NCBI GenBank assembly: GCA_020850715.1
Contig: JADZED010000041.1
Location: 10,623 to 74,622, forward strand
Source: Acidobacteriota bacterium
Lineage (GTDB): Bacteria > Acidobacteriota > Vicinamibacteria > Vicinamibacterales > CAVVIG01
DNA: 64,000 nt
Reading direction: 5' to 3'
A program made the position numbers and the translations under genes. Shown here in pieces: positions 4,516 through 23,217 of the stretch (position 1 is its first letter; each line of letters opens with the position of its first letter). The notes beneath the pieces were generated by a model. It was not told the DNA's origin and did no database searches. It saw only the letters and a program-made list of their open reading frames with translations.

Positions 4516-5214
4516 ATGGAGATCTCCACGACAGACCTCGCTCGCGTTGCGGCGTTCTCGACCCTCCCCGAGGAGACGCTCATCGTCCTCCAGCGCGTCG
4601 TCGTGACGCGCGTCTTCCATCCAGACGAGATCGTGTTCGCCGCCGGCGAGCCCAGCGGAGGCTTGTGGTTTCTCAGGGAGGGGCGGGTTCGCATCTTCCG
4701 GACGTCGGTGGACGGCCGGAAGCAGGAGTTCTGCGTCATGCACGCGGGGATGTGCTGCGGCTGCCCGCTGTTCTTCGGCGACGTGAACCCGGCCTGGGCC
4801 GAAGCGATCGACCGGGTCACGTTCTATTTCATCGAACGCAGCGCCGCGCTGCAGCTCGCCGAGCGGCATCCCGACATCGGCCGGCTGCTGTTTCGCGTGT
4901 TCGGGCGGGGCGAGCGCGTACTGGCCGCGCTGGTGGTCGGCCTGTCGGGATCGCCCGTGCACGCGCGGGTGGCCCGCACCATCCTCGATCATGTCGACGC
5001 CGATCCGGTCGCTCCGTCGCGCGTCATCGCGATCAGCCACCAGGAGCTCGCCGACAGCGTCGGCACGAGCCGGGAGGTCGTCACCCGGTCGCTCGACACG
5101 CTCGCGCGCGAACAGATCATCGCGCTGGGGCGCCGCGGCATCACGGTGCTGGATCGGCGGAAGCTGGCGCACCTGACCGGGAGGATGTGTCCCCTCTTGC
5201 CTGCCCGTCCCTGA
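4516..5214 (+). CDS. Crp/Fnr family transcriptional regulator (paralog 1) with an internal Cys cluster
   Basis: cNMP-binding beta-roll (FAAGEPSGGLWFLREGRVRIFR) plus a C-terminal HTH (ISHQELADSVGTSREVVTRSLDTLAREQII). It carries an unusual CVMHAGMCCGCP motif. Confidence 0.85.
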   Translation: MEISTTDLARVAAFSTLPEETLIVLQRVVVTRVFHPDEIVFAAGEPSGGLWFLREGRVRIFRTSVDGRKQEFCVMHAGMCCGCPLFFGDVNPAWAEAIDRVTFYFIERSAALQLAERHPDIGRLLFRVFGRGERVLAALVVGLSGSPVHARVARTILDHVDADPVAPSRVIAISHQELADSVGTSREVVTRSLDTLAREQIIALGRRGITVLDRRKLAHLTGRMCPLLPARP

Positions 5215-5575: not shown

Positions 5576-5669
5576 GACTTTAGTCACAGAACGCCCGTCG
5601 CGGCGGTGCTACAAGAACGGCCACGGTCGTTCCTGCTCGGTGCGGCACAGCGTCGGAGGCAGGTTGCCG

Positions 5670-6446
5670 ATGCGCGAGTCGGTGCGCTCACTTCGGGCTC
5701 TCCCGCTGTTCGCCGATCTGGCGGCGAGCGAACTGGAGGAGCTGTCGGGCCTGGTCGAGGAGCGGACCTTCGACGCGCACCAGGCGATCACGCGCGAGGG
5801 CCGTCTGTGGGAAGGGCTCTACGTCGTCAAGTCGGGCAAAGTGAAGATGACGAGGCGCATCGGCGTGCAGCAGGCGGGGCGCGAGCTGACGATCGCGGTG
5901 CTCGGACCGGGCGACCCCGTCAACATGACGGCGCTCTTCGAGGGCGACCGGAACGTCTTCACGACCGAGGCGCTGACGCCCGCCGCGCTGTGGGTCCTTC
6001 CCGGCGCGCGCGCGCGGGCATTCGTCTCGCGGCACCCGGCGATGCAGCGGGCGCTCCTGCGGGCCCTGAACTGGGAGCTGCGCCGCCTCGTCTCGCTCGC
6101 GAGCCGTCTCGCCTTCAGCGGCGTCACCGCGCGCCTGGCCTTCAGCGTGTTCGAGCAGACGCGCCTCACGGGCGTGCGGACCGACAGAGGCGTCGCGATT
6201 CGTCGCGATCTGACGCTGAACGACCTCGCGTCGCTCGTGGGCACGACGCGGCGCGTCATCTCGAAATCTCTCAGCGAGCTGCGCCACGACGGCGTGATCG
6301 CGGTCGAGCCGTCGCGGCTCGTCGTGCTGGACGAAGACAGGCTGGCCGAGATCGCCGGCCTGCGGCAGCACGCCCGGGCGGCGACTCGCGCCGGGCGCGA
6401 CTCCTCCGGGGCTGGACGGGCGCCGCGGCCGCCGCTCGCCAACTGA
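5670..6446 (+). CDS. Crp/Fnr family transcriptional regulator (paralog 2)
   Basis: Within track ORF 5529..6446; the start is moved to the ATG at 5670 (GGAGG lies 10 nt upstream). MRESVRSLRALPLFADL... is a typical cNMP-domain start. HTH: LTLNDLASLVGTTRRVISKSLSELRHDGVI. Confidence 0.85.
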   Translation: MRESVRSLRALPLFADLAASELEELSGLVEERTFDAHQAITREGRLWEGLYVVKSGKVKMTRRIGVQQAGRELTIAVLGPGDPVNMTALFEGDRNVFTTEALTPAALWVLPGARARAFVSRHPAMQRALLRALNWELRRLVSLASRLAFSGVTARLAFSVFEQTRLTGVRTDRGVAIRRDLTLNDLASLVGTTRRVISKSLSELRHDGVIAVEPSRLVVLDEDRLAEIAGLRQHARAATRAGRDSSGAGRAPRPPLAN

Positions 6447-6459
6447 AGGGGACAGGGGC

Positions 6460-6582
6460 ATGCCGATGGAGAAATGGGAGACGCCCGGGACGCTCGTGGT
6501 CAACTTCGTGTACATCGCGATCTTCGTCGTCCTGTACTGCCTGATCTTCTATGAGCTGGCACGGAAATGGGGGGTCCGATGA
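6460..6582 (+). CDS. 40-aa single-TM miniprotein, a candidate ba3-type oxidase subunit IIa (CbaD-like)
   Basis: Not in the track because it is under 60 aa. MPMEKWETPGTLVVNFVYIAIFVVLYCLIFYELARKWGVR. A purine-rich RBS (GAAGGGGA) lies upstream. It ends in an ATGA overlap with the next ORF and sits directly upstream of subunit II, as cbaD does in Thermus. Confidence 0.4.
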   Translation: MPMEKWETPGTLVVNFVYIAIFVVLYCLIFYELARKWGVR

Positions 6583-6776
6583 GCGCGCCCGCAGCGGTTC
6601 GCGACGGACGGCCCAGAACGATCGTGGGCGCCTGTCTCGACAGCCTCGGCTTCTGGTTCTTCCTCTGCATGCTCGAAGGCTTCGCGTTCATTCTCTGGAC
6701 GGTGGTCGAGGTGCAGAACCACTACTACTTCGCGACGATGCCGTTCGGCACGTCGGGAATGCGGATTCCGTGGTAA
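6579..6776 (+). CDS. Small membrane protein (65 aa) of unknown function in the oxidase operon
   Basis: Track ORF 6567..6776; ATG at 6579 in an ATGA overlap. Hydrophobic core: LGFWFFLCMLEGFAFILWTVV. Confidence 0.4.
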   Translation: MSAPAAVRDGRPRTIVGACLDSLGFWFFLCMLEGFAFILWTVVEVQNHYYFATMPFGTSGMRIPW

Positions 6777-6806
6777 CCGGATCGTTCTGCTGAAGGAGCG
6801 CGTGCG

Positions 6807-7328
6807 ATGGCTGGAACCGCGTTCGATCCCCCGGGAGCCGGCTGGGAGCGCAGGATGCCTCCCGACAAGCGGCTGTTCCTCTGGGTGCTGCTCGCGCAGG
6901 CCCTCTTCCTCATCGGCGTCAGCGCGACCATGCTGGCGAGCGCGCACACCAACCCGGTCAAGCAGTTCCAGACGACTCCGGAAGCCTTCTCGCAGCGCGT
7001 CGCCGAGTTCGTCGACAAGTACCAGGTTGGCCCGCGCACGGTTCGCGTGCCGCCCGGGGAAGACGCCTACCTGCTCGCGCGCATGTGGAGCTTCTATCCC
7101 GACCTGATTCTGAAGAAGGGGCAGGCCTACACCATCTGGTACTCGTCGGTCGATGTGACGCACAACCCGCAGATCGCGGGGCAGCGCCTCAGCTTTCAGG
7201 CCGTGCCCGGCCACGCACAGGGGGTGGTGCTGACGCCGACCACGACCGGCACCTTCCTCCTGTACTGCGGCGAGTACTGCGGCGTCGGCCACCAGGCCAT
7301 GATGGGCAAGATCGTCGTCGAGGACTAG
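6807..7328 (+). CDS. Heme-copper oxidase subunit II (CuA cupredoxin, ba3-like, no fused cytochrome c)
   Basis: One N-terminal TM segment followed by a cupredoxin domain. CuA motif: YCGEYCGVGHQAMMGKIVV (C-x-E-x-C-G-x2-H-x2-M), with an upstream His in VDVTHNP. Confidence 0.85.
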   Translation: MAGTAFDPPGAGWERRMPPDKRLFLWVLLAQALFLIGVSATMLASAHTNPVKQFQTTPEAFSQRVAEFVDKYQVGPRTVRVPPGEDAYLLARMWSFYPDLILKKGQAYTIWYSSVDVTHNPQIAGQRLSFQAVPGHAQGVVLTPTTTGTFLLYCGEYCGVGHQAMMGKIVVED

Positions 7329-7354
7329 CCGCCTTCACGCCGAGGAGACATCAC

Positions 7355-8938
7355 GTGGAAGCGATTTACACGGATCCCGAAACCGGGTTGCGGCTCGATC
7401 GCGCCACCCACCGGCTCATCGTCACCTTTCTCGCGACGGCCTTTCTCGCGCTCGGCGGCGCCGCGCTCGCGGCATTCTTCGTGGCGCTCACGCGCGCGCC
7501 GGCGATCCAGCTCCTGTGGCCCTCCGCGTACTACATGGCGCTGACCTTCCACGGCATTCTCGCGCTGACGATCTGGCCGCACGTCTTCGAGGCGACCCTG
7601 TGGCTCTGGGCCTGCACGTCGCTGCTCCGGACGCGCCTCATCTCGCCGGCGCTCGGCTGGCTCGCCTACGGCCTCGCGGTCTTCGGCATTCTCATGATCC
7701 TCGGGACGGTCGCCAGCGGGAACGCGAGCGTCATGTACACGATGTACGTCCCGCTCAGGGCCGACCCCCTCTTCTATCTCGGCCACATCATCTACGCGCT
7801 CGGACTCCTCACGCTCCTGATCCTCTTCGGCCTCAATCTCCTGAAGGCCCGCGCCGACGGCACCTATCTGGGGTCGCTGCCGCTCCTCACCTACGGCATG
7901 GCGGTCGCGGCGATTCTCACGGTGGTCGCGATCATCGGCGCCGTCGCGGCGTTCGTGCCGACGGTGCTGTGGGCGTTCCGGATTCTGATCTCGAAGGTCG
8001 ATCCGCTCTACTTCAAGGCGACCTTCTGGTCGATGGGGCACACGCTCCAGTACACGAACATCACGGCGATGGTCGTCGCCTGGTACGGCACCGCGACCTT
8101 CACGCTCGGGGCCAGGCCGGTCTCCGAGAAGTTCTCGCGCTGGGCGTTTGCGCTCTACCTCATCACGACGCTGCCGGTGTTCATGCACCACTTCCTGGTC
8201 GACCCGACGTGGTCGCACGCCGTGAAGTGGGTCGGCGCGACCGTCGTCGGCATCTTCCTCGGCATCCCGAGCGCGATGCACGGGCTGGCGGTGCCGGCCT
8301 CGGTCGAGAAGACCCTGCGCAGCCGCGGCGTGGGCGGCCTCTGGGGCTGGTTCCGCCAGTGGGGCTGGAACCAGGCGCCGATGGTGCTGCTGGCGTTCTC
8401 GGTGGTGCTCTTCGGCCTGGGCGGGTTCGACGGCACCGTCGCGACGACGATGCAGTTGAACATGATCGAGCACAACAACATGTGGATTCCCGCGCACATC
8501 CACGGCACGCTCGCGGGCGGCGCCACGCTCGGCTTCATGGCGTTCTCCTACGGCTTCCTGCCGCACCTGGGGTTCGAGATCAAGGGACGCCGCTTCGCCC
8601 TGCCGCAGGCCTGGATCACCGGCATCGGCTTCGCCCTGCTGATCACGGGCATGCACTGGGGCGCGCACCTCGGCGTGCCGCGCCGCATGCAGGACATCCG
8701 CTTCCTCGGCGCCGATGCGCCGGTGCCGGACTGGCTGAATTCCATGAACCTCCTCGGCGTGGGCGGCGTCCTGGCGGCGACCGGGATCCTGACGTTCGTG
8801 ACGATCGGGCTGGCGAGCGTCCTCGCCGGCAACAGGCGCCGGCCGGAAATGCTGGCCGAGGCGACCGACCTCTGGCTGCCGTCGGAGCGGCCCGGGTACG
8901 TCGCCGGGCAGGTCACCCCGTCTCCGAACACGGTATGA
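7355..8938 (+). CDS. Heme-copper oxidase subunit I, B-family (ba3-like), full ligand set
   Basis: Inside track ORF 7085..8938; GTG at 7355 with GAGGAG 7 nt upstream. Ligand motifs: AYYMALTFHGIL (helix II His), FWSMGHTLQY (CuB His plus cross-link Tyr), VFMHHFL (HH pair), WIPAHIHGTLAGG (HxH). Confidence 0.85.
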   Translation: MEAIYTDPETGLRLDRATHRLIVTFLATAFLALGGAALAAFFVALTRAPAIQLLWPSAYYMALTFHGILALTIWPHVFEATLWLWACTSLLRTRLISPALGWLAYGLAVFGILMILGTVASGNASVMYTMYVPLRADPLFYLGHIIYALGLLTLLILFGLNLLKARADGTYLGSLPLLTYGMAVAAILTVVAIIGAVAAFVPTVLWAFRILISKVDPLYFKATFWSMGHTLQYTNITAMVVAWYGTATFTLGARPVSEKFSRWAFALYLITTLPVFMHHFLVDPTWSHAVKWVGATVVGIFLGIPSAMHGLAVPASVEKTLRSRGVGGLWGWFRQWGWNQAPMVLLAFSVVLFGLGGFDGTVATTMQLNMIEHNNMWIPAHIHGTLAGGATLGFMAFSYGFLPHLGFEIKGRRFALPQAWITGIGFALLITGMHWGAHLGVPRRMQDIRFLGADAPVPDWLNSMNLLGVGGVLAATGILTFVTIGLASVLAGNRRRPEMLAEATDLWLPSERPGYVAGQVTPSPNTV

Positions 8939-10305
8939 CGCGGGATGCACGCGACCGCGACCGGCTGCTCGACGCCTGGGCGCTGTTTGCCGCAGCCGCG
9001 ATGGTGACGGCTTCGCTCCTCGCCCTTGCCGCCGGCGCCGTCGCCACCGGCACCGGGACGGGATTCGCGGCGCCGGTCGTCGTCCGGCTGCTCGTCGGCC
9101 ACGTGTTCTTCTCCCTGGTGGTGGCGGCCACCTCATTCGCCGCGGTGCTCTGGATCCACTCCGCTCGTCTGCTCGAGGGGTCGCGGTTCTCGAACCGCAG
9201 CGGATGGATCGGCTGGTGGCTCGCTGCCGCCGGAGCGCTCCTGGCAATGGTGGGCACGCTGGGCCCATGGGGCACGCCGGTGCTCACCGAGTTCGTCCCC
9301 GTAATCGTGGATCCGCTGTTCCTCTCGGGGTTTGGCCTCTTCATGGCCGGCATCGCCCTGACGACCGGCGCGTTCGGCGCGGCGGTCGCCGGCGCCGAGA
9401 TCGGCCGGATGCCCCTGGTGGTCTACGGGATGGCCTGTTCCGCCGGGATGATGGTGGCAACCGGACTGGCCGGCGTGGCCTCGCTCACGCGCCTCTTCGG
9501 CGACTGGCTGGCGTTCCGCCTCGCCTGGCGCACGCCGGTCGTGCTGTTCCAGGCCATCTTCTGGGGGCCGGCGCACCTCATCCAGTTCGCGGTGATTGCG
9601 GCCATGGTGTCCGCGTGGATTCTGATGCTGCCGGGCCGGACGCCGGACGCCAGGAGCGAGCGGGTCGGCAGGGGCGTGTTCCTGGTCCTGCTGCTCTTTG
9701 CCGGCGTCACGCTGGTGGTGCTCTACGCCTGGAACCCGCTCGACCTTCCGAAGGCCTCGACGTTGAACACGTTGATCTCCGACTCGCAGGCCTTGCCGGT
9801 CGCCGTGATGGCGGTCGCGATCCTGCGGGCGATGCGGCGCCGGGGGGCGGGCGTGCCGGCGCCGGGCCTGCTGCTGTCGCTGCTGCTCTTCGCCTGGGGG
9901 CTGCTGATTGTGCTGGTCGGGATTCGGCAGGAAGGCAACGCCTGGGTGCCGGCGCACTACGTCGCGATGATCCCGGGCGCCGTGCTGTCGGCGTTCATGG
10001 CGATCACCAGCGCGCTGGTCCGCGGCGAGCGCCGGCCGGCGATGACGGCGCTGTCGGCCGTGCAGCCGGCCTTGTACGCCGGCGGCGTGTTCGTCTGTTC
10101 GCTGGCCCTGCTCTGGAGCGCGCTGGCCGGGGGCGAGCGGCGGGGCTACTTCGTCACGATGCCGGCGGAGGGACCCTCCGTGCTCCTCTGGGCCGGCGGG
10201 ATCGCGACCGGCCTCGGCGTCCTCGCGTTTGCGACCGGCGTAGGCGATGCCGTGATCGGCGCCGCGCGGCGTCCGTTCGGGCGAACCGCGGATTCGACGG
10301 TGTAG
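8935..10305 (+). CDS. Divergent heme-copper-oxidase subunit-I-like membrane protein (paralog 2, ligand-depleted)
   Basis: Inside track ORF 7516..10305; the ATG at 8935 forms an ATGA overlap with subunit I. It shares LLVGHVFF, VDPLFLSGF, IFWGPAHLIQF and NAWVPAHYVAM with subunit I, but lacks the HH pair, the Tyr and the second helix-X His. Confidence 0.6.
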   Translation: MTRDARDRDRLLDAWALFAAAAMVTASLLALAAGAVATGTGTGFAAPVVVRLLVGHVFFSLVVAATSFAAVLWIHSARLLEGSRFSNRSGWIGWWLAAAGALLAMVGTLGPWGTPVLTEFVPVIVDPLFLSGFGLFMAGIALTTGAFGAAVAGAEIGRMPLVVYGMACSAGMMVATGLAGVASLTRLFGDWLAFRLAWRTPVVLFQAIFWGPAHLIQFAVIAAMVSAWILMLPGRTPDARSERVGRGVFLVLLLFAGVTLVVLYAWNPLDLPKASTLNTLISDSQALPVAVMAVAILRAMRRRGAGVPAPGLLLSLLLFAWGLLIVLVGIRQEGNAWVPAHYVAMIPGAVLSAFMAITSALVRGERRPAMTALSAVQPALYAGGVFVCSLALLWSALAGGERRGYFVTMPAEGPSVLLWAGGIATGLGVLAFATGVGDAVIGAARRPFGRTADSTV

Positions 10306-10326
10306 GTCGTCGCGCGCGAGGCACCC

Positions 10327-11730
10327 ATGCATCCATCATCCGCGTCGTGGGCGTACGGAGGCCGGCTCTCTCAGCTTCGCGCCTGGCTGCTGTTCGCCGT
10401 GAGCGCGCTCGCGATCGCCGGCGCCTTCGCGCTGCTCGCGGTCCTCACCCGCACGCCGGCGGTGCAGTTGCTGGGGACGGCGGAGGGGCTGCACCGGGCC
10501 ATCGCCGGGCACGTCACCTTCGCCCTGCTCGTGTGGCTGCTCGCCTTCGAAACCGTCCTGTGGCTCCTTGCCTCGCCGCCCGAATGTCGTCCGAGGACGT
10601 TCTCGCGATCGCTGCTGCTGGCTTCCGCCGGCAGCGGCCTGCTGATCGTCGCGGTCCTGTCCGGCCGGGGCGCCGCCGTGCTCACCGACTACGTGTCGGT
10701 CATCGTCGATCCGCTGTTCTTCGCGGGGCTCGCCCTCTTCGCGGCCGGCGTCGGGGGCGCGGCGTGGGCAGCCGTCGGCCACGTCGCGGGTACGCGCTCG
10801 CTGCTGCAGCACGGCATGCAGGCGGCGGCGGTGATTGGGGTGCTCGCGCTGGGCGCGTGCGGGACGGCGCTGGCATGGCTGCTGCCGAGGGACCCGGCAG
10901 CCACCGACTTCGTCTTCTTCCAGAGCCTGTTCTGGATGACCGGTCACCTGTTGCAGTTCGTCAACGTCGTCGCGATGACCTCGGTGTGGTACCTGCTCCT
11001 CGACGCGGGATTCGGCGCCGGCGTGCGCGACGATCGTCTCGCGCGGCGGGCCTACGATGCGTCCGTCGTCCTGGCGATGCTGCTGTTCGCCTGCACGGTG
11101 GGGTTCGATTCGCGCACGCTGCCGGCCAATCTCGGATTGAGCGTGGCCATGGGGCTCGCCGCGGCGCTGCCGGCGCTGGTGCACGCCGCCCTCGTGGTGG
11201 GCGCGATCGCCAGGAGGAGGCGCGGATGGTCGTCGCCTGAAGGCGCCGCGCTCCTCTGCTCGGTGACGTTGTTCGTCTGCGGCATCGTGCTCGCCCTCGC
11301 GAGGGTGCGAACGGGCAGTTCGATGTGGATTCCGGCGCACTACCACGCCGTCGTCGTCGGCGGGGTCACGATGGCGTTCATGGGGCTGACCTACACGCTG
11401 ATCGGTCGGCTGGGCACGATGGCGTGGCCGCGCCTGTCGGCCGTCCAGCCGTGGCTGTACGGCCTGGGCATGCTGCTGGTCGTCGCCGGCATGAACTGGG
11501 CCGGCGCCGAGGGCGCACCGCGCAAGACCTTCGACCCCGCGTTGGGCGCCGCGGCGGCGCGATGGGTCACGCCGATGAACGTGATGGGCGCCGGCGGCGT
11601 GGTCGCGGTGCTCGGCGGCGCGATGTTCGTGCTGAATGCCCTCGTCTCGCTTGCGACCACCGCGCGTGTGCGGGCGGACGCGCCGGTCATCCCGATCCAC
11701 GCGGCCTCGGTACACGGCCGAATCCGTTGA
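10327..11730 (+). CDS. Divergent heme-copper-oxidase subunit-I-like membrane protein (paralog 3, partly ligand-depleted)
   Basis: Track ORF of 467 aa. Motifs: AIAGHVTFALLVW, VDPLFFAGL, LFWMTGHLLQF (Phe in place of Tyr), LVHAALV (single His instead of HH), MWIPAHYHAVVVGG (HxH retained). Confidence 0.6.
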   Translation: MHPSSASWAYGGRLSQLRAWLLFAVSALAIAGAFALLAVLTRTPAVQLLGTAEGLHRAIAGHVTFALLVWLLAFETVLWLLASPPECRPRTFSRSLLLASAGSGLLIVAVLSGRGAAVLTDYVSVIVDPLFFAGLALFAAGVGGAAWAAVGHVAGTRSLLQHGMQAAAVIGVLALGACGTALAWLLPRDPAATDFVFFQSLFWMTGHLLQFVNVVAMTSVWYLLLDAGFGAGVRDDRLARRAYDASVVLAMLLFACTVGFDSRTLPANLGLSVAMGLAAALPALVHAALVVGAIARRRRGWSSPEGAALLCSVTLFVCGIVLALARVRTGSSMWIPAHYHAVVVGGVTMAFMGLTYTLIGRLGTMAWPRLSAVQPWLYGLGMLLVVAGMNWAGAEGAPRKTFDPALGAAAARWVTPMNVMGAGGVVAVLGGAMFVLNALVSLATTARVRADAPVIPIHAASVHGRIR

Positions 11731-11742
11731 GGCAGTTCGCCC

Positions 11743-12588
11743 ATGGGCGTGTGGATCGCACTGTTCAAGCTTCGCATCGCGCTGCTGATCACGTTCAGCG
11801 GCGTCGCCGCCGCAATTCTCACGGCGGCGCAGTGGCAGGCGCACGTGCTGCCGGGGCTGGCGCTGGCCTTGATGCTCGCCTCCGCCGGCGCCGGGGCGCT
11901 GAACCATGCCCTCGACGCCGACATCGACCGGCGGATGTCGCGCACGGCGCGACGGCCGATTCCTTCCGGCCGCGTACGCCGTCGAACGGCGATCGCCGCC
12001 GGCGTCGGACTGGTCCTCGTCGCGCTGGCCGTCGCGGCGTTGGGCGTGAACCGGTGGGTGGCGCTGTATCTCTTCGGCGGCGTGTTCGTCTACGTCGTGG
12101 TCTACACGGCGTGGCTGAAACGGCGGACCGCCGCGAACATCGTCGTCGGCGGCCTGGCCGGAAGCTTCGCGGCGCTCGCCGGCGGTGCATCCGTCGGACC
12201 GGATCTCGGCCTTCCTCCGATCCTGCTGGCGGCGGTCCTGTTCTTCTGGACGCCGCCGCACTTCTGGGCGCTGGCCATTGCCTGCGAGGAGGACTATCGC
12301 CAGGCGGGCATTCCCATGCTGCCGGTCGTGAGAGGACCGAAGCGCACGGCGGGATGGATACTCGCGCACACGATGGCGCTGGTTGCCGTGTCGCTGGTTC
12401 CCGCGCTGCTCGGGAGGGCCGCGCCGGCGTACGCGACGGCGGCGGCGGCGCTGGGCGCCTACTACCTCTGGCGGAACTGGCAGCTCTTCAGGCGGCCGAC
12501 GCGGCTCTCGGCGCGCAGATCGTTTCGGGCGTCGCTCGTCTATCTCACGCTGCTGCTCGCCGCCGTCGTGGCCAATCTGAGGTTGTGA
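11743..12588 (+). CDS. ctaB: Protoheme IX farnesyltransferase (heme O synthase)
   Basis: UbiA-family polytopic protein. Motifs: NHALDADIDRRMSRTARRPIPSGRV, and the second Asp-rich region context FWTPPHFWALA. Confidence 0.9.
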   Translation: MGVWIALFKLRIALLITFSGVAAAILTAAQWQAHVLPGLALALMLASAGAGALNHALDADIDRRMSRTARRPIPSGRVRRRTAIAAGVGLVLVALAVAALGVNRWVALYLFGGVFVYVVVYTAWLKRRTAANIVVGGLAGSFAALAGGASVGPDLGLPPILLAAVLFFWTPPHFWALAIACEEDYRQAGIPMLPVVRGPKRTAGWILAHTMALVAVSLVPALLGRAAPAYATAAAALGAYYLWRNWQLFRRPTRLSARRSFRASLVYLTLLLAAVVANLRL

Positions 12589-14702
12589 TGGCGGACGCGG
12601 CCGGACCCACCTGTTTCCACTGCACGCTGCCGGCCGGCAGCCATCCGCTGCGCTACCGCATGGCCGGCGCCCGGCAGCCGTTCTGCTGTCACGGCTGCTA
12701 TCTCGTGTGCCTCATGACCGGCCGCCACGGCGAACAGGGCGAATCGCTGCTGGCGCTCGCGCGGCTGACCGTCGGCGTGACCTGCGGCATGGTCGTGATG
12801 ATCTTCTCCTGGTCGCACTACGCCGATCGGTATCTGCTTCACGATGCCGCGGGCGACGCCGATGCGCTCGCGCTGCTCGTGCGGTACTACGTGCTCCTGA
12901 CGGCAACGGTGGCGGTCGCGGTGCTGGGAGTTCCGATCCTGCGCGACGCGCTCGCCGGGCTCCGCAGCCTGCGTGCCGGAATTGCGCTGCTCGTCGCGAT
13001 CGGAGCGTTTTCCGCGTACGGGGTGTCGGCCGTCGAGGTGATGCGGGGCGGCGAGACCTACTTCGACACGGCCACGATGATCCTCGTGTTCTTCACCATG
13101 GGGCACTATCTCGAGGCGCGCGGGCGCGCGCGGGCCACCGACGCCATGCGGTCGCTGGCGGCCGTCGCGCCGGCTGCCGCCCGCGTGCTGCGCGGCGGCC
13201 GGGAGATCCGCGTCGCGGTGGCCGATCTCGCCATCGGCGATATGGTGCTCGTGCGGGCGGGCGAGACCATCCCGGTGGACGGCGTGGCCTGCGAGGGCGG
13301 CGGCGGGTTGAACGAGGCGGCGCTGACGGGAGAGAGCCGCCCGGTCGCCCGCGAGATCGGCGATCGGCTGCTGGCCGGTTCGGTGAGCCTCGACGGGGCG
13401 TTCGTGATCAGGGTCACCGCGCTCGCCGCGGATCGCACGGTGGCGCGGCTGGCGCGCCTGGCTGAAGAGGCGAAGCGGCAGCGGCCGGCATGGGTCGGCC
13501 TGGCCGATACGGTCGCGTCGATCTTCACGCCCGCGGTCATCCTGCTGGCGATCGCGGCGTTCGCGTTCTGGGCGCACCGGCTCGGCTTCATCCATGGCCT
13601 GCTCGTCGCCATGTCCGTGCTCCTGATCGCCTGCCCGTGCACGCTGGGCGTCGCGACGCCGCTGGCGTTCTGGAGCGGCCTCGCGCTCGCCGCGCGGCGC
13701 GGAATTCTCGTGCGATCGGGACCGGTCTTCGAGCGGCTTGCCCGCGCCTCGGACGTGTTCTTCGACAAGACCGGGACGCTGACCGACGGCCTCTTCACGA
13801 TCGTGGACGTGTTGCACGGCGACGAGGACGGACCGGCCGCCGCGGCGGCCGCCCCGCCGCCGCTGCAGATCGCCGCATCGCTCGAATCGCGCGCGCAGCA
13901 CCCGGTCGCGTCGGCGCTGCGGGCCCACGCGGCGGCAGCCGGCCTCGCGGAGCTGCCGCTGTCGGATGGCCGCGTCCACGCGGGCCTCGGGGTCCGCGGG
14001 CGCATCGCGGGCGGCGACACGGAGTACGTGCTCGGCAGCCGGCGGCTGATGGAGCGCTGCGGTCTCGAGATCGGCAGGAGGCTCGACCGGGCCGCCGCCG
14101 CACGCAGCGCGCGCGGCGAAAGCGTCGCGTATCTCGGGTGGGAGGGCCGGGTGCGCGCGGCATTTGTCGCCGCCGAAGCGCCGCGCGCGGAAGCCCGAAC
14201 GGCCGTGGAGGAATTGCGGCGGCTCGGATCGCGCGTCGCGCTCCTGAGCGGCGACCAGCCCGCCAGCGCGGGGCGCTTGGGCGCGGCGGTCGGCGTCAGC
14301 GACATCCGATCGGCGCTGTTGCCACACGAAAAGGTCGATGCCGTGCAGGCGGGCCGGCGGGCGGTCATGGTCGGCGACGGGATCAACGACGCGGCGGCGC
14401 TGGCTGCGGCCCATGTCGGGATTGCGCTGGGCTGCGGAACCGACATCGCGCGCGAAATGGCCGACGTCACCATGATCGGCAGCAATCTGATGCAGGTGCC
14501 CTGGCTGCTCAGGTTCGCACGCCGCATCCGGCGCACCGTCGTCACCAACCTGCTGTGGGCGTTCGCGTACAACGTCGTCGGGATCGGGCTCGCGCTCGCG
14601 GGGTCGATCTCGCCGGTGCTCGCGGCGCTCGCGATGGTCGCGAGCAGCCTGTTCGTGTTCGCGAACACCGGCCGGCTGGCTCGCGCCGACGCCCGGTTCT
14701 GA
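12588..14702 (+). CDS. Copper-translocating P1B-type ATPase, CcoI/FixI-like (oxidase metallation type)
   Basis: Inside the artefactual track ORF 11325..14702; the ATG at 12588 overlaps the ctaB stop (ATGA). N-terminal CFHC...FCCHGCYLVC metal-binding domain, CPC motif (IACPCTLGVATP), DKTGTLT, LPHEKV, MVGDGINDAAALA. Confidence 0.9.
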   Translation: MADAAGPTCFHCTLPAGSHPLRYRMAGARQPFCCHGCYLVCLMTGRHGEQGESLLALARLTVGVTCGMVVMIFSWSHYADRYLLHDAAGDADALALLVRYYVLLTATVAVAVLGVPILRDALAGLRSLRAGIALLVAIGAFSAYGVSAVEVMRGGETYFDTATMILVFFTMGHYLEARGRARATDAMRSLAAVAPAAARVLRGGREIRVAVADLAIGDMVLVRAGETIPVDGVACEGGGGLNEAALTGESRPVAREIGDRLLAGSVSLDGAFVIRVTALAADRTVARLARLAEEAKRQRPAWVGLADTVASIFTPAVILLAIAAFAFWAHRLGFIHGLLVAMSVLLIACPCTLGVATPLAFWSGLALAARRGILVRSGPVFERLARASDVFFDKTGTLTDGLFTIVDVLHGDEDGPAAAAAAPPPLQIAASLESRAQHPVASALRAHAAAAGLAELPLSDGRVHAGLGVRGRIAGGDTEYVLGSRRLMERCGLEIGRRLDRAAAARSARGESVAYLGWEGRVRAAFVAAEAPRAEARTAVEELRRLGSRVALLSGDQPASAGRLGAAVGVSDIRSALLPHEKVDAVQAGRRAVMVGDGINDAAALAAAHVGIALGCGTDIAREMADVTMIGSNLMQVPWLLRFARRIRRTVVTNLLWAFAYNVVGIGLALAGSISPVLAALAMVASSLFVFANTGRLARADARF

Positions 14703-14821
14703 AGACGACTGGTGTCCCGTTCCCGGTGGATCGTGGCATGAGTCGCGGAGCGCCGCGCCCCGATGGCCAGGCGCTGGGACGGGACACTACCAGGAGCGGC
14801 ATCCAGGAGGAGACCGAAGCC

Positions 14822-15589
14822 ATGGCGAACAGCGATTCGACGGCCGCGACGGCGGTCCGCGTGCTACTGATGGTCGTGCCGATGCTCGCGGGGACCGCCA
14901 GCGCACAGTCCCAGGCGCCCGCTCAATCCGACGACGTCAAGGCCGGACAGTTCATCTACGAACGCTCGTGCGTGAACTGTCACGGCCCGCGCGGACAGGG
15001 CGACGGCGTCGCGGCGCCGCAGCTGGATCCGCAGCCCAGGGACTTCACCCGCGGCCTGTTCAAGTTTCGAACGACGCCGAGCGGCACGATGCCCACGCTG
15101 GACGATCTGGAGAGAACGGTGACGCACGGCATCACGGGCACCGCGATGAATCAATGGAGCGAGCTGTCGGCCGCCGATCAGCGCGACGTTCTCCTCTACA
15201 TCCAGACCTTCTCGCGCTCCGGCTGGAAAGCCGGGACGCCGATCGTGGTGCCCCCGGAGCCCGCCTTCACGATCGAGTCGGCACGGCGGGGCGTGCAGGC
15301 CTACGCCCTTCTCCAGTGCGCGAAGTGCCACGGCGAGACCGGACGCGGCGACGGGCCGTCGGCCGCCGACCTGAAGGACAGCTGGGAGCGGCCGATCCGG
15401 CCGGCCGACCTGACGATTGGCAGTCGGTACAAGCGCGGCTCCACGCCGCTCGACATCTATCTCACCTTCTTCACCGGGCTCATGGGAACGCCCATGCCGT
15501 CCTATGCGGGCACGCTCCAGACGCCGCAGGACGAATGGGATCTCGTGCACTACGTCTACGCGCTCTCGCAAGGCCGACCGGTGCAGTGA
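14822..15589 (+). CDS. Dihaem c-type cytochrome (secreted)
   Basis: Inside track ORF 13490..15589; ATG at 14822. Signal peptide: VLLMVVPMLAGTASAQ. Two CxxCH sites: CVNCHG and CAKCHG. Confidence 0.85.
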   Translation: MANSDSTAATAVRVLLMVVPMLAGTASAQSQAPAQSDDVKAGQFIYERSCVNCHGPRGQGDGVAAPQLDPQPRDFTRGLFKFRTTPSGTMPTLDDLERTVTHGITGTAMNQWSELSAADQRDVLLYIQTFSRSGWKAGTPIVVPPEPAFTIESARRGVQAYALLQCAKCHGETGRGDGPSAADLKDSWERPIRPADLTIGSRYKRGSTPLDIYLTFFTGLMGTPMPSYAGTLQTPQDEWDLVHYVYALSQGRPVQ

Positions 15590-15645
15590 GCGGGGAGGAC
15601 GGCCGGCCGGCGGGACGTGGACCAAACGGAATCGAGGAGCAACCG

Positions 15646-16362
15646 ATGCGGCATACATGGCAATCGCTGGCGGCGCCGGCACTCCGCCGGCCTGGCCTCA
15701 CCGCGCTCGCGATCGTGACGGCGATCGCCGGCGCGGGCCTGGCCGGGTACAGCACCGCGGATTTCAGCGGCGTGACGGAGGCGTCGCTCGGCATTCATCC
15801 GACGATGGCGCCTGAGGCGCCCGACGCCGGCGACCCGCCTCTCGCGCGGGGCGACTCACCGGTGAGGGATTTCGTCCTGACCGACGAGGAAGGGCGCCGC
15901 GTGAGCCTCGGACAGCAGGCGGGCAAGGTCACGCTCGTCAACTTCGTGACGAGCCGCTGCACCGACGCGTGCCCGCGCGTCACCCGACAGCTCCGGAATC
16001 TGCAGGCGACGCTCGGGGATCGGATGGAACGCGACGTGATGTTCCTCAGCATCGGGCTCGACCCGCGTGTCGACTCGCGCGGCGCCATCCGGAAGTTCGC
16101 GGTCGATCTCGGCGTGGAGTTCAACGGATGGCGGTTCCTGACCGGGAGCCCGGCCGAGCTGGAGCGCGCCCGGAGCGCGTTCGACGTGCAGGTCCTGAAT
16201 GCGCCGCCCGGAGGCGACGCCTCCGTCGACCTCGTGCACACCGCGTCGGTCTTCCTCGTGGATCGCACGGGCGTCCTGCGCCGGAAGCTCGACCCGGACA
16301 CGCTGCCGCAGAGCGCGCTCGACGCGGTCGAAGCGGCGCTCGCCGGGCGGCCGGCCACGTGA
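15646..16362 (+). CDS. SCO1/SenC family copper chaperone
   Basis: Inside track ORF 14968..16362; ATG at 15646. It has an N-terminal TM anchor, a thioredoxin fold with CTDACP (CxxxCP), and a distal His (LVHTASVFLVD). Confidence 0.85.
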   Translation: MRHTWQSLAAPALRRPGLTALAIVTAIAGAGLAGYSTADFSGVTEASLGIHPTMAPEAPDAGDPPLARGDSPVRDFVLTDEEGRRVSLGQQAGKVTLVNFVTSRCTDACPRVTRQLRNLQATLGDRMERDVMFLSIGLDPRVDSRGAIRKFAVDLGVEFNGWRFLTGSPAELERARSAFDVQVLNAPPGGDASVDLVHTASVFLVDRTGVLRRKLDPDTLPQSALDAVEAALAGRPAT

Positions 16363-17123
16363 AACGCCTGTTGCTCGTCCTCGCGGCGGTCTCGCTCGGC
16401 GCCGGCACGAGCTTCGCGGCGACCGGACAGCATGTCCATGCCGCCTCTGCCCTTCCAGGACTCGGCGTCGTCGCGGCCTGCCTGTTCGGCCTTCTGGGCA
16501 GCACGCACTGCGCCGGCATGTGCGGTCCCCTGGTGGCGATGTATGCCAGCCAGGTCTCTGCTTCCGCGGCGCCGGTCCATCGTCAACACCTGCTGTTCAA
16601 CCTCGGGCGCGTGCTGGCGTACACCAACGGGGGCATCTTGTGCGGTGCGGCTGGATTCGTGCTGGCCACGCGCCCCTGGATCGCGGCTGTCGTCGGCATG
16701 AGCGTCGGCCTGTTCGTGCTGACCGTCGCCGGACGCCTGGTCGGGATTTCAGCGTCGAGCGGCGCCGCGCGCCCGCGCCTGATCCCGCTTGCCGCACTCG
16801 AGGCGCGAATGTATCGCGGCTGTTTGCGCGCCGCACGGTCGCCCAACATCGCGCTGCTCGGCGCGTTGCACGCGCTGCTCCCCTGTCCGCTGCTGTACGT
16901 GATGTACGCCTCCGCGGTGGCGCTCGGAGATCCGGCGCGCGGGGGCATCCTGCTGCTTGCCTTCGGCATGGGAACGGTCCCGATGCTGTGGGCGATCGGT
17001 GCGATTGGCGCCGCCTTGAAGCTCGAGCGCCGGGTCCGATGGCATCGGCTCTTCGGCTGGACGGTGGCGGCCTGGGGCGTCGTTCTGCTGATCCGGAGCG
17101 TGCAGAGCCTGCGGGCGCTCTGA
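16359..17123 (+). CDS. DsbD_2/TauE-like membrane protein with an HCxxMCGP motif (putative thiol/metal handling for oxidase biogenesis)
   Basis: Inside track ORF 15969..17123; the GTG at 16359 overlaps the sco stop (GTGA). Motifs: STHCAGMCGPLVAMY and ALLPCPLLY. About 6 TM segments. Confidence 0.6.
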   Translation: MKRLLLVLAAVSLGAGTSFAATGQHVHAASALPGLGVVAACLFGLLGSTHCAGMCGPLVAMYASQVSASAAPVHRQHLLFNLGRVLAYTNGGILCGAAGFVLATRPWIAAVVGMSVGLFVLTVAGRLVGISASSGAARPRLIPLAALEARMYRGCLRAARSPNIALLGALHALLPCPLLYVMYASAVALGDPARGGILLLAFGMGTVPMLWAIGAIGAALKLERRVRWHRLFGWTVAAWGVVLLIRSVQSLRAL

Positions 17124-17433: not shown

Positions 17434-18993
17434 TCAGCCGAGCCGCGGCTCGCGCGGGAACTTGATCGGACCCGACTTCTCGACCACCTGCCGCCACACG
17501 CGCCGGCCGACCCTGTCCGCTTCGGCCACGAGCGCGGCTTCGTCCATCGTCAGCACCTTGCCGCCGCGCATCAGGAACCGCCCGTCGACCATCGTCGACT
17601 CGATGTCCGACGACTGCCCGCAGTGCACGATCGCCGAGATGATGCGCCCGTACGGCACCGTGTTCGGCTTCATGTAGTTGAAGACGAAGAGGTCCGCTTT
17701 CTTCCCGACCGTGAGGCTGCCGATGGTCTTCTCCTGATTCACCGCCGCCGCGCCGCCCATCGTCGCGTCAGCCAGCATGTCTTCCGGCTGCGGGCGCAGC
17801 CCCGGCTTGATGTCGCTCGTCCGGGAAACGCGCTCGGTGACCAGCGCGATGCGCATCACCTGGAAGACGTCGTTGGTGTTGTTGTCGGTGCCGTTGGCGA
17901 TCACGCAGCCGGCCGCGCGCAGCTTTGCAATCGGCGGGATGACGCCGCGGTTGCCGGCCATGTTGGCCTGGTGCGAGATGATGCAGTGGTTGCTGCCGAG
18001 CAGCGCGATGTCCTCGTCGCTGAGATAGCGGCCGTGGCCGACGAAGAACCGCGGCCCGAGAAAGCCGGCCCGCGCGAGAAACTGCGTCGGCGATTCGCCC
18101 TGCCCCTGCCACTTGCGGACGAAGTCGTTTTCCCAGGTCGTCTGGGACAGGTGCAGCGTGTAGCCCAGGTCGTGCTTGTCGGCGAAGTCGCGAATCTGCT
18201 TCAACGCGACGAGCGACGTCGATTCGGCAAGCCCGCCGGATGGAAACACGCTGACGCGGCCATTTTCCTTGCCGTGCCACCTGCTGTAGCCGTCGTTGAT
18301 GCGCTGGAGCCCTTCAGCGCGCAGCTTCTCGGAGAAGCGCGGCGCTTCCTTCATGTCCCTGAGCGTCTCGAGCGTCATCGGGCCCGACATGTTCTCCGCA
18401 TCGCGGATCGACTCGAGGAACACGCAGCGCAGGCCGCTCGGGATGAGCCCGGGGCCGTCACCGGAAGTGCTGCCGGCGACCACGGTGGTCGTGCCGCTCC
18501 GGATGGATTCGAGCGCCGCGATCTGCACCATCAGCGTGGATTCGCCGGGCTGGAGATAGCTGCTCGGGCTGGCCGCGAGCTTGTAGCTGTTCGGGAACCC
18601 GAAGTCCTCGTTGTAGCCGCGCTCGAGGACCGCGCCCAGGTGCCCGTGGCAGTTGACGAGGCCCGGCAGGATCACCTTGCCGCGCCCGTCGTACTGATCC
18701 GCGTTCGGATACTTCTGAAGGATGGCGTCGGTCGGGCCGATGTCGGCGATCGTATCGCCCACGACCGCGAGCGCGACGTCTTCCTGCGTCAGATCGGGAT
18801 TGGCGACGATCGTGTGCGTGAACACGATGGGCCGCGCGGCGGGTGGCGCCTGCCGCGCTTCGACGCCGCCGGACTCGAAGAAGAGCGCCGCGGCGCCGGC
18901 GCCCGCTCCGGCCAGCAGTTGGCGGCGTGTCAGGTTGACGGAAGGCCCGGACGCGGGCGAAGACGACGAGCGGCGCTTGTTCCGTTTGCGCAT
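17434..18993 (-). CDS. Amidohydrolase-superfamily protein with a Tat signal
   Basis: Track ORF 17434..19203; the start is moved to the ATG at 18993 (AGGAGG 8 nt upstream). Tat-like signal: TRRQLLAGAGAGAAALFF. Metal-binding motif: LVNCHGHLG. The length and pattern fit a chlorohydrolase/deaminase-type amidohydrolase. Confidence 0.75.
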   Translation of the reverse strand: MRKRNKRRSSSSPASGPSVNLTRRQLLAGAGAGAAALFFESGGVEARQAPPAARPIVFTHTIVANPDLTQEDVALAVVGDTIADIGPTDAILQKYPNADQYDGRGKVILPGLVNCHGHLGAVLERGYNEDFGFPNSYKLAASPSSYLQPGESTLMVQIAALESIRSGTTTVVAGSTSGDGPGLIPSGLRCVFLESIRDAENMSGPMTLETLRDMKEAPRFSEKLRAEGLQRINDGYSRWHGKENGRVSVFPSGGLAESTSLVALKQIRDFADKHDLGYTLHLSQTTWENDFVRKWQGQGESPTQFLARAGFLGPRFFVGHGRYLSDEDIALLGSNHCIISHQANMAGNRGVIPPIAKLRAAGCVIANGTDNNTNDVFQVMRIALVTERVSRTSDIKPGLRPQPEDMLADATMGGAAAVNQEKTIGSLTVGKKADLFVFNYMKPNTVPYGRIISAIVHCGQSSDIESTMVDGRFLMRGGKVLTMDEAALVAEADRVGRRVWRQVVEKSGPIKFPREPRLG

Positions 18994-19262
18994 ATATGGC
19001 CTCCTGGCGGCGGAATCGTTGTCTGTCGAGGCGCTCATTATGGACCAGGCGACGGCGTGTTCGCACCGGGGCAGTGCCCGCGGATTGGCGCCGTGCCGCC
19101 GGGCGGCGGCGCCCGCCGGGTGGAGACTGCAGCGGCGGGGCGTGTCTCGCGGCGCGGCGCGCACGGCGTGGCAACGGCTGGGCTCGCTCGTGCTCCGCGG
19201 CACGCCGGGGCCGCGCCTTGGTAGACTCGGGACTTGCCGCCTGCCGGGCGCCGAGGGGCCAC

Positions 19263-22385
<3,123 letters not shown>

Positions 22386-22389
22386 AAGG

Positions 22390-23217
22390 ATGCGGGCGTT
22401 GGCGCACGAGGTCGACCTGGAGATCAGGCTGCTGCTGGACGCGATCTACCACCGGTACCAGCACGACTTCCGTGATTACGCCGTGGCGTCGCTCAGACGC
22501 CGGCTGGCGCAGGCGGTCGAGCATCTGGGCTGCCTGAGCGTCTCCGGCCTGCAGGAGCGCGTCCTGCACGATCCGACGGCCTTCCCCTCCGTCCTGCAGT
22601 ACCTGACGGTACCGGTCAGCGACATGTTTCGCGATCCGTGGTACTTCCGCGCCGTTCGCGAGCACGTCGTCCCGGTGCTCCGGACCTATCCGTCGATCAA
22701 GCTGTGGATCGCGGGCTGCGGCCACGGCGAGGAGGTGTACTCGTTCGCGATCGTGCTCGCCGAAGAGGGGATGCTCGATCGGACGCTCATCTACGCGACC
22801 GACATCAACCCGGCGGGCCTCGAGGCGGCCCAGGCCGGCATCTACCCTCTGGATCGCTTCCGCCGGTTCACCGAGAATCACCGGCGCGCGGGCGGGAAGA
22901 GCTCGTTGTCGGCCTACTATCGGGCGGCATACGGCTCGGCGGCGATCGACAAGCGCCTGAAGAAGCGGATCGTCTTCTCCGACCACAGCCTGGCCACCGA
23001 CAGCGCCTTCGGCGAAGTGCAGTTCGTCTCGTGTCGCAACGTGCTCATCTACTTCAACCGCACGCTTCAGGACCGTGCGGTGGGCCTGTTTCACGATTCG
23101 CTGTGCCGGCGAGGGTTCCTGGGGCTCGGCGCGAAGGAGAGCCTGCGCTTCACCGCCCACGCGGCGGCCTTCGCCGAGGTCGAACACGACGCGCGCATCT
23201 ACCAGCGGAAGGCCTGA
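22390..23217 (+). CDS. cheR: CheR-type protein-glutamate O-methyltransferase
   Basis: 275 aa. Motifs: LWIAGCGHGEEVYSFAIVL (SAM-binding region typical of CheR) and FVSCRNVLIYFN. Confidence 0.85.
   Translation: MRALAHEVDLEIRLLLDAIYHRYQHDFRDYAVASLRRRLAQAVEHLGCLSVSGLQERVLHDPTAFPSVLQYLTVPVSDMFRDPWYFRAVREHVVPVLRTYPSIKLWIAGCGHGEEVYSFAIVLAEEGMLDRTLIYATDINPAGLEAAQAGIYPLDRFRRFTENHRRAGGKSSLSAYYRAAYGSAAIDKRLKKRIVFSDHSLATDSAFGEVQFVSCRNVLIYFNRTLQDRAVGLFHDSLCRRGFLGLGAKESLRFTAHAAAFAEVEHDARIYQRKA

Follow-up and report, generated by a model that had tools for sequence, protein, structure and literature searches.

A 64-kb window of an Acidobacteriota genome (contig JADZED010000041.1, positions 10,623 to 74,622; G+C ~70%) was analysed. 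The genes at 6567-17123 of this window are one operon, which encodes a cytochrome-c-oxidising haem-copper oxidase (HCO) together with its own biogenesis factors. The catalytic subunit I of this oxidase (P1, 527 amino acids (aa), 7355-8938, + strand) is followed by two further subunit-I-like genes, P2 (456 aa, 8935-10305, +) and P3 (467 aa, 10327-11730, +). P2 and P3 are intact paralogues of subunit I that are under selection, and neither is a catalytic subunit of an oxidase or NO reductase. P3 is a member of a very large, widespread and essentially undescribed family of subunit-I paralogues that lack the copper site and appear to keep the haem sites, termed P3-like here, which ranges over Proteobacteria, Nitrospinota, Nitrospirota, Aquificota, Chloroflexota, Acidobacteriota and archaea. 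The reading that we favour, with a probability of roughly 0.45, is that P2 and P3 would act as haem-binding pseudo-subunit-I assembly scaffolds, where both the haem binding and the scaffold role are deduced from sequence and gene context.

An earlier inspection of the same DNA (the sequence-only reading) had described three tandem homologues of HCO subunit I, and this description was confirmed. All three proteins matched the Pfam family PF00115 (COX1) end to end and above its gathering score of 34.8 bits, P1 with 183.7 bits (E-value 7e-54), P2 with 39.8 bits (3e-10) and P3 with 72.5 bits (4e-20). P1 was aligned over residues 19-503 with subunit I of the Thermus thermophilus ba3 oxidase (E 6e-46), with all ligands in register, and P3 also matched ba3 by sequence (E 2.5e-8). 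For P2 no real match to solved structures was obtained in a PDB sequence search, and neither P2 nor P3 had a match in NCBIfam. AlphaFold (AF2) models of P2 and P3 were built on family alignments and contained 12 transmembrane (TM) helices each, with a predicted local distance difference test score (pLDDT) of 88.3 and a predicted TM-score (pTM) of 0.90 for P3, and 85.4 and 0.88, respectively, for P2. The top solved-structure match of both models was T. thermophilus ba3 subunit I (TM-score 0.76 for P3 and 0.73 for P2). Comparison of the three proteins with one another by phmmer within the window gave E-values of 2e-39 to 7e-37 for P1 and P3, 3e-40 to 1e-39 for P2 and P3, and 4e-12 to 3e-11 for P1 and P2. 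The full-length profile matches and the ba3 fold indicate that the resemblance of P1-P3 is due to homology and not to transmembrane composition, which speaks against the unrelated transporter family that had been raised as an alternative.

Only P1 was found to have a complete set of ligands. These are H66, H229/Y233, H278-H279, H381/H383 and R443-R444 (signature HHYHHHHRR), which includes all six of the His that define a catalytic HCO. Four of the six are present in P3 (H62, H207/F211 and H338/H340, with R399/K400), in which both helix-VII His are gone, and three are present in P2 (H56, H214/F218 and H341/V343), a protein with four His in its whole length, three of them at these canonical positions. 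The cross-link Tyr at His+4 of helix VI, where GHTLQY of P1 aligns with GHPIVY of ba3, is Phe in both P2 and P3. P2 is therefore without the CuB His pair, the Tyr and the second helix-X His, and P3 is without the CuB His pair and the Tyr and retains the H-x-H motif and the helix-VI His. In all of these points the sequence-only reading was upheld; the motifs that it quoted were all present, and the ATGA overlap of the P1 stop with the P2 start is real. From the residues present it is established that P2 and P3 could not form a haem-CuB(-Tyr) centre, which P1 alone could do, and that both keep haem-ligand positions. P3 retains the axial His sets of both haem sites and the propionate-binding Arg/Lys, and would be expected to bind two haems. 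P2 keeps the high-spin proximal His, the helix-II His and the Arg pair, and may bind haem as well.

One assignment of the sequence-only reading had to be corrected, namely that the His of the P3 motif LVHAAL occupies the position of the His-His pair. This residue is H286, and it falls in the same column of the family alignment as H309 of P1 (SAMHGL). In the P1-ba3 alignment that position is aligned with the helix-VIII segment PSLMTAF of ba3, which belongs to the K-channel. In P3, the segment equivalent to the His-His pair, LLFACTVGFDSRTL, contains no His, and the residues under the pair are C256-T257 in the MAFFT alignment or D261-S262 in the HMMER alignment. An identification of P3 as a gNOR, on account of the 'DS' placed by HMMER under the 'HH' of ba3, was considered and rejected, as gNOR replaces one His and has its own CuA-less subunit II, and the family alignment moves the register of 'DS' and 'HH' by four residues.

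The conservation of P2 and P3 is that of living genes. Proteins 100% identical to both are encoded in an Acidobacteria metagenome-assembled genome. Thirty-six close homologues of P2 were found at 44-64% identity; the P2 homologues compared (n=33) all have H214 and H341, the conservation of H56 is at least 90%, and the haem-propionate Arg pair is aligned with an E-R-R-G-Y-F motif of the family. The residue that replaces the second helix-X His varies among these homologues (Q, E, D, N or V), so no alternative axial ligand is conserved. In 35 diverse relatives of P3 the invariant residues were H62, W203, G206, H207, Q210, the helix-X sequence P-A-H-Y-H (H338, H340), R399 and K400. Intact orthologues of P2/P3 occur at 44-76% identity, the closest homologues being at 64-76%. 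The progressive loss of metal ligands, and a Pfam score of P2 that is barely above the cut-off, might suggest that P2 and P3 are functionless subunit-I duplicates in decay. However, the reading frames are intact, orthologues in which the functional residues are invariant occur in numerous phyla and contigs, the folds are predicted with confidence, the family has thousands of members, and three of the four His of P2 are retained ligand positions. The pseudogene idea was rejected on conservation and is effectively refuted, with a negligible probability of being correct, and the pseudogenisation that the sequence-only reading had allowed for was not borne out.

That reading had also placed the three genes in the setting of a canonical ba3/B-family oxidase, and ba3 is composed of subunits I, II and IIa only. 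This placement did not hold. P1 was 34-42% identical to eNOR-type subunit I, compared with 30% to ba3-like subunit I in the same data set. The Tyr-bearing relatives of P1 were from Anaerolineales and Actinomycetes metagenome-assembled genomes (MAGs), and in a neighbour-joining (NJ) tree this Tyr clade was sister to the eNOR clade; the tree is rough (BLOSUM distances, no support values, unclean outgroup rooting) and was read for nearest-neighbour relations only. By these comparisons P1 is a Tyr-bearing sister of the eNOR clade and not a canonical ba3/B1 enzyme, and it is predicted to be an O2 reductase because the six His and the Tyr are present. The T. thermophilus ba3 oxidase (PDB 1EHK/1XME) is nevertheless the closest solved structure for P1, P2 and P3, and its haem ligands, Arg pair and helix-VI W/H align with those of the window proteins. 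It differs in having no CuB-less paralogue, and P1 is only ~30% identical to ba3-like sequence.

The likeness to eNOR (Hemp & Gennis 2008; Murali et al. 2024, PMC11214002) is not limited to the similarity of P1 to eNOR-type subunit I, but includes the operon plan (small protein, CuA subunit II, subunit I, P3-like protein, CtaB and SCO1) and the Gln at helix-VI His+3, which is common to P1, P2, P3 and the eNOR-type subunits. Gln in place of the cross-link Tyr is diagnostic of eNOR (PMC8756737). P1 differs in this respect, with Tyr and not Gln at His+4, whereas the subunits of the neighbouring clade (L004-L009 and other loci) have GHxxQQ. In sNOR/bNOR the Tyr is replaced by Asn (PMC3475470), which none of P1, P2 and P3 has at this position. 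According to a survey of HCO families (Murali et al. 2024, PMC11214002), gNOR is the only one in which the active-site His are not fully conserved; the other described families keep all three CuB/FeB His, of which P2 and P3 lack two. gNOR, which has been proposed to be catalytic (Murali et al. 2024, PMC11214002), is like P2 and P3 in being an HCO lineage with a replaced active-site His. It differs in that the replacement is a single His to Asp and in having its own CuA-less cupredoxin subunit, whereas P2 and P3 are without both helix-VII His and without a dedicated subunit II, the sole subunit II of the operon having a full CuA motif.

A pattern scan of one genome per species yielded at least 576 confirmed P3-like genomic loci. 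Carriers among the matches listed included Anaerolineales, Nitrospinota, Nitrospirota, Aquificaceae, Delta-, Beta-, Gamma- and Alphaproteobacteria, Halobacteria and Hydrothermarchaeota, and two cultured carriers, Noviherbaspirillum sp. ST 5-3 and Sedimenticola hydrogenitrophicus, make the family testable. When the Noviherbaspirillum P3-like protein was used as a query, 6835 protein clusters were retrieved at E <1e-20, and their names were generic only ('cbb3-type cytochrome c oxidase subunit I', 'cytochrome c oxidase subunit I' or 'hypothetical protein'). Ligand columns were read from an alignment of subunit-I-like open reading frames (ORFs) of at least 300 aa, collected by a phmmer screen of 88 loci; A-family subunit I genes were missed by this screen and were recovered in a later search. 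The family signature consists of a helix-II His, a helix-VI His with Phe or Tyr at +4, a helix-X H-x-H motif and an Arg-Lys pair, and no member has His at either of the helix-VII CuB columns, which are mostly [ILVA]-Tyr. P3 carries every element of this signature (helix-II His, W-x3-H-x2-Q, no His-His, P-A-H-Y-H and P-R-K), and P2 deviates from it with HYV for HYH and RR for RK. Some eNOR-type subunit I genes of the Aquificae and their relatives (L004/L005, 6334-8001; L027, 5292-6959; L072, 5300-6967) were observed to have Lys for the second helix-X His (HHQHHHK), a signature that matches the His/Lys low-spin haem ligation described for some eNORs (Murali et al. 2024, PMC11214002). The P3-like partners of these eNORs form a clade of their own with a gap at the His-His columns.

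P2 is an offshoot of this family. In hhalign the profiles of P2 and of the P3-like family could be aligned over their full length (E 6.5e-62, 29% identity), and in the NJ tree the P2 clade was sister to the P3 subclade of the window, both adjoining the P3-like proteins that accompany the most similar oxidase clusters. When 1.84 billion representatives were searched exhaustively with a profile, one full-length P2-type protein and two fragments were returned (346-576 bits), after which the scores fell to 217 bits (P3 subclade). This gap indicates that P2 is essentially one cluster at 50% identity and is rare. A survey of synteny, as had been proposed, showed the same layout as in the window (subunit II, subunit I, P2, P3) in one contig (L003), and subunit II, subunit I and P2 without P3 in two others (L001, from Binatia, and L002). 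On profile and tree evidence, the P3-like family arose from eNOR/B-type subunit I in an old duplication in which CuB was lost, and a lineage-specific duplication with the loss of another His then produced P2, which is judged to be a recent duplicate of P3 confined to the P1-type oxidase lineage. The 'stepwise loss of metal ligands' of the sequence-only reading is, by hhalign and the NJ tree, better described as two duplication events. The window adds to the family the rarer case of a second-generation duplicate, with one more ligand lost, which is translationally coupled to the catalytic subunit.

The gene neighbourhoods of P3-like genes are of several kinds. In Deltaproteobacteria, Nitrospirota, archaea and some Aquificae the order is small protein, COX2, eNOR subunit I, P3-like, CtaB, SCO1 and CytB-FeS, often adjoining nirS or nos genes. 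The order in Beta- and Gammaproteobacteria, including Noviherbaspirillum, is COX2, eNOR subunit I, CtaB, SCO1, CytB-FeS, P3-like and CtaA, and in Aquificaceae and Nitrospinota it is COX3, SCO1, COX2, A-family subunit I, CtaA, CtaB and P3-like. CtaA and P3-like genes are divergent in Alphaproteobacteria, and in Deltaproteobacteria there are also clusters that combine P3-like and CtaB genes with one for a monohaem cytochrome c and have no oxidase subunit nearby. P3-like genes therefore accompany eNOR, A-family and window-like Tyr-type clusters. Neighbours were counted in the 47 unbiased loci of the scan that had 3 kb or more of sequence on each side, a gap of <400 bp being taken as adjacent. CtaA or CtaB was adjacent to the P3-like gene in 25 of the 47 loci and within 3 kb in 28; the corresponding counts were 11 and 24 for a CytB-[4Fe-4S]-FlpD protein, 2 and 18 for SCO1, and 7 and 12 for a real subunit I.

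Gene fusions involve some of the same partners. About 20 of the best 150 representatives of the family are much longer than 470 aa, and Pfam scans were made of ten long representatives and of three found earlier. Haem O synthase is fused to the P3-like protein in four (P0060, P0067, P0105 and P0286), SCO1 in two (P0299 and P0301) and a C-terminal tetratricopeptide repeat (TPR) region of ~150-200 aa in six (P0294, P0308, P0312, P0320, P0338 and P0353), and in one a cytochrome b precedes the P3-like part (P0344). The TPR region of two of these proteins had a sub-threshold match to the Pfam CcmH/CycH TPR family. By neighbourhood and by fusion, the P3-like family is linked to the suppliers of haem O/A and of copper of more than one oxidase family, and this link is established.

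These associations led us to the assembly-scaffold model. P3-like proteins would bind haem (B, O or A) made by the haem O or haem A synthases encoded next to them, would dock subunit II and the copper chaperone SCO1, or would do both, so that cofactors or partner subunits could be kept in a subunit-I-like environment before or during the maturation of the real subunit I. If the shared need is for haem O/A or copper handling, a P3-like gene is expected beside several kinds of oxidase. Among the functions guessed at in the sequence-only reading (structural partners, delivery modules or a haem-only enzyme), a delivery or assembly module fits best with the CtaA/CtaB adjacency and the fusions. Few membrane enzymes have been studied as thoroughly as haem-copper oxidases and NO reductases, yet the delivery of haem O/A and copper to subunit I is poorly understood in B-type and eNOR-type enzymes. 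The window operon also fits the model, as it has a haem O synthase, a copper pump-like ATPase, SCO1 and a DsbD_2 protein, and Pfam and NCBIfam scans detected no recognisable haem-insertion factor in it; P2 and P3 could fill this gap. The logic of such a scaffold would be analogous to that of NifEN, a degenerate-paralogue scaffold for the nitrogenase NifDK, and Surf1/CbaX-type proteins are known as haem a insertion factors. In these cases a paralogue or a membrane factor holds a cofactor before it is handed over, and is encoded with cofactor-synthesis genes. They differ in having no sequence relationship to the P3-like proteins, and the comparison is one of analogy only.

Several observations weigh against a scaffold. 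Haem binding by the P3-like family is deduced from the conserved ligands alone, and the CtaA/CtaB adjacency would equally be expected if the protein used haem O/A as a cofactor of its own. The strict conservation of the distal pocket (W203, H207, Q210 and a Tyr for the second CuB His) looks more like that of a ligand-binding or catalytic site. The CytB-FeS-FlpD neighbours (24/47) and the cytochrome b fusion suggest electron transfer to or from P3-like proteins, and the clusters of P3-like, CtaB and cytochrome c without an oxidase fit a stand-alone haem-O enzyme. The ATGA coupling of P1 and P2 fits a stoichiometric subunit as well as a scaffold. Finally, the P3 subclade of the window is without the family Tyr, and its job may differ from that of the wider family.

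Much of this evidence bears on the possibility that P3-like proteins (and P2, as a variant of them) work on their own as haem-only oxidoreductases or sensors of the membrane, with haem O/A in the old a3 pocket and a His/Tyr/Gln distal site. Electrons would come from CytB-FeS-FlpD or cytochrome c, and the substrate or sensed molecule would be small (NO, O2, peroxide or nitrite). In its favour are the invariant residues of both haem sites and of the distal pocket, the frequency of CytB-FeS as a neighbour, the one cytochrome b fusion, the clusters of P3-like, CtaB and cytochrome c without subunit I or II, and the nirS or nos genes of several loci. No main subunit I was detected in 52 of the 88 loci (eight of which were fetched for other reasons), in a search that misses A-family subunits. 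However, the fusions to SCO1, TPR and haem O synthase are hard to explain in this way, the distal Tyr is gone in the P3 subclade of the window and the second haem ligand in P2, and no dedicated cupredoxin or cytochrome partner is consistently present. We also know of no precedent for turnover by an HCO scaffold without a second metal. Taken as a whole, from enzyme to sensor, we consider this possibility doubtful, although it has a real chance of being correct.

The CytB-FeS-FlpD protein itself is a fusion of a membrane cytochrome b with an FlpD/MvhD-like domain and a ferredoxin domain of the two-[4Fe-4S] type. It recurs in eNOR clusters and beside P3-like genes (L052, 4727-6403; L028, 4811-6388; L004, L006 and L008; ~40/88 loci), and it might donate electrons to eNOR, haem A synthase or P3-like proteins, or accept electrons from them. 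That the family can work without a neighbouring oxidase is hinted at most clearly by clusters in which a P3-like gene and a haem O synthase occur together with a monohaem cytochrome c of 108 aa (L017, 6974-9747, and similarly L014-L016, L022 and L029). They are flanked by an Mrp/NUBPL Fe-S ATPase, with no oxidase subunits within 7 kb. The 108-aa protein of the Deltaproteobacterial loci was a candidate for COX2 and was rejected as such, since it is actually this monohaem cytochrome c, and COX2 counts based on clustering are over-estimates. A 140-aa ORF at 5669-6091 (- strand) of L017, ~0.9 kb upstream of the P3-like gene in this Deltaproteobacterial cluster without a full subunit I or II, matched only the C-terminal part of PF00115 (positions 342-404, 36.8 bits).

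A permanent structural role was also considered, in which P2 and P3 would be non-catalytic subunits of the mature oxidase, either stabilisers like subunit III of A-family enzymes or partners of P1 in a pseudo-heterodimer. Both genes follow subunit I directly, among the structural genes of the operon and with the ATGA coupling of P1 to P2, and in many clusters the P3-like gene comes next downstream of eNOR subunit I, sometimes overlapping it. In the rough NJ tree the P3-like and eNOR clades of the same loci group in parallel, and B-type oxidases have no subunit III. However, in most loci the P3-like gene is away from subunit I, it also occurs with A-family oxidases that possess their own COX3, and the fusions to SCO1 and CtaB argue for a role at the assembly stage. 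The purified eNOR of R. marinus had two main bands (subunits I and II), an observation that would count against a structural role if R. marinus carries a P3-like gene. We regard a structural role as unlikely. In a Calidithermus MAG (L006, 1948-4191 (-) and 5630-10345 (+)), a canonical ba3-type oxidase (GHPIVY, HH) has beside it a gene with multicopper-oxidase domains (Cu-oxidase_3/Cu-oxidase_2) and then an eNOR cluster with P3-like; the P3-like paralogue is in the eNOR cluster and not beside the ba3 genes.

A variation on cofactor handling is that P3-like proteins are cofactor-maturation machines, in which a subunit-I mimic would hold haem O in the old a3 pocket and process it with the CytB-[4Fe-4S]-FlpD protein. 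A speculative example would be a haem A route with little or no requirement for O2, or the passing on of haem A(s). A preprint on Ferrigenium straubiae (2026) asks how O2-dependent haem A synthesis is served in anoxic denitrifying growth, and it is this question that makes the haem-processing idea attractive, although it is still speculative and in our estimation improbable. If it were true, it would explain how denitrifiers that need the haem-A-containing eNOR mature this enzyme at very low oxygen, and it would extend the NifEN-type principle of a 'paralogue scaffold' to respiratory oxidases.

The literature was searched for a described CuB-less subunit-I paralogue, and nothing was found beyond one sentence in the Ferrigenium preprint, in which an "eNOR scaffold protein of unknown function" is named in passing, with no sequence description, evidence or citation. 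The operon in question contains eNOR II, eNOR I, haem O synthase, sco1 and cytochrome b-FeS genes, which is the layout around P3-like genes in Beta- and Gammaproteobacteria, and we infer that the protein is a member of the P3-like family. Many eNOR operons have been reported to contain CtaA, in a survey in which CuB-less paralogues were not discussed (Murali et al. 2024, PMC11214002), and in the HCO classifier of Sousa et al. (2011) sequences without six His were discarded. The statement of the sequence-only reading that no role had been described for such extra copies is therefore supported by the HCO surveys and by the absence of NCBIfam matches, and the check for a named accessory family gave only this passing mention and the generic database names. 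The arrangement is not unique, as the P3-like family is very large and only P2 is rare. Curated HCO surveys filter out P3-like proteins, and in annotation pipelines they receive the name 'cbb3-type cytochrome c oxidase subunit I', so that terminal oxidases are over-counted in metagenomic surveys. If P3-like proteins are assembly scaffolds or haem handlers, they would offer a direct genetic handle on the maturation of eNOR, and hence on N2O production.

Every gene of the window operon at 6567-17123 is on the + strand, and the gaps are short or the ORFs overlap. The first gene (6567-6776, +) encodes a 69-aa single-TM protein, a candidate subunit IIa-like protein, which is conserved directly upstream of COX2 and is 83%, 52% and 35% identical to its counterparts in L003, L001 and L002, respectively, with no match in Pfam or NCBIfam. 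An additional 38-aa gene was called immediately before the 69-aa gene in L002 (7284-7400) and L003 (4367-4483). Subunit II (6807-7328, +) is a cupredoxin with a CuA site (PF00116 25.9 bits, TIGR02866 5.6e-13), and its CuA motif is present in the sequence as H...CGEYCGVGHQAMM. The start codon of P1 is a GTG located 8 nt after GAGGAG. P3 is followed by a haem O synthase (CtaB/CyoE; 11743-12588, +; TIGR01473 272 bits against a cut-off of 210, PF01040) and by a P-type ATPase with an N-terminal metal-binding domain (12588-14702, +; PF00122, PF00702 and a weak PF12156), which is a putative copper exporter of the CcoI/FixI kind. A dihaem cytochrome c with a signal peptide (14822-15589, +; two PF00034/PF13442 stretches and two CxxCH motifs) is the likely electron donor to CuA. 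A SCO1/SenC copper chaperone (15646-16362, +; PF02630 6e-22) and a DsbD_2-type membrane protein (16359-17123, +; PF13386 4.3e-38) complete the operon. The DsbD_2 protein resembles, by literature description alone, the ~6-TM protein encoded after senC in sNOR/bNOR clusters (PMC3475470). An interpretation of the extra subunit-I-like genes as the 'orf1' of sNOR was rejected, as orf1 is described as a ~6-TM protein (PMC3475470) and is closer to this DsbD_2 gene. Homologues of haem A synthase, of subunit III, of NirS and of the CytB-FeS protein were all absent from the 64-kb window.

Two Crp/Fnr-type regulators are encoded upstream of the operon. The first (4516-5214, +) is a putative regulator, as two cNMP_binding and HTH_Crp_2 genes are equivalently placed in the syntenic L003, and the second (5670-6446, +) matched PF00027 (6.7e-17) and PF13545 (5.2e-12). 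The first gene downstream of the operon is an amidohydrolase gene on the opposite strand; at this place in L003, the closest syntenic contig, the DsbD_2 gene is followed by a DUF2249 and hemerythrin protein (14291-14998). A signalling block is located further downstream in the window (18939-24985), consisting of a large hybrid histidine kinase, in which a GAF domain and three matches to receiver domains were seen, together with a CheR methyltransferase and another receiver-kinase.

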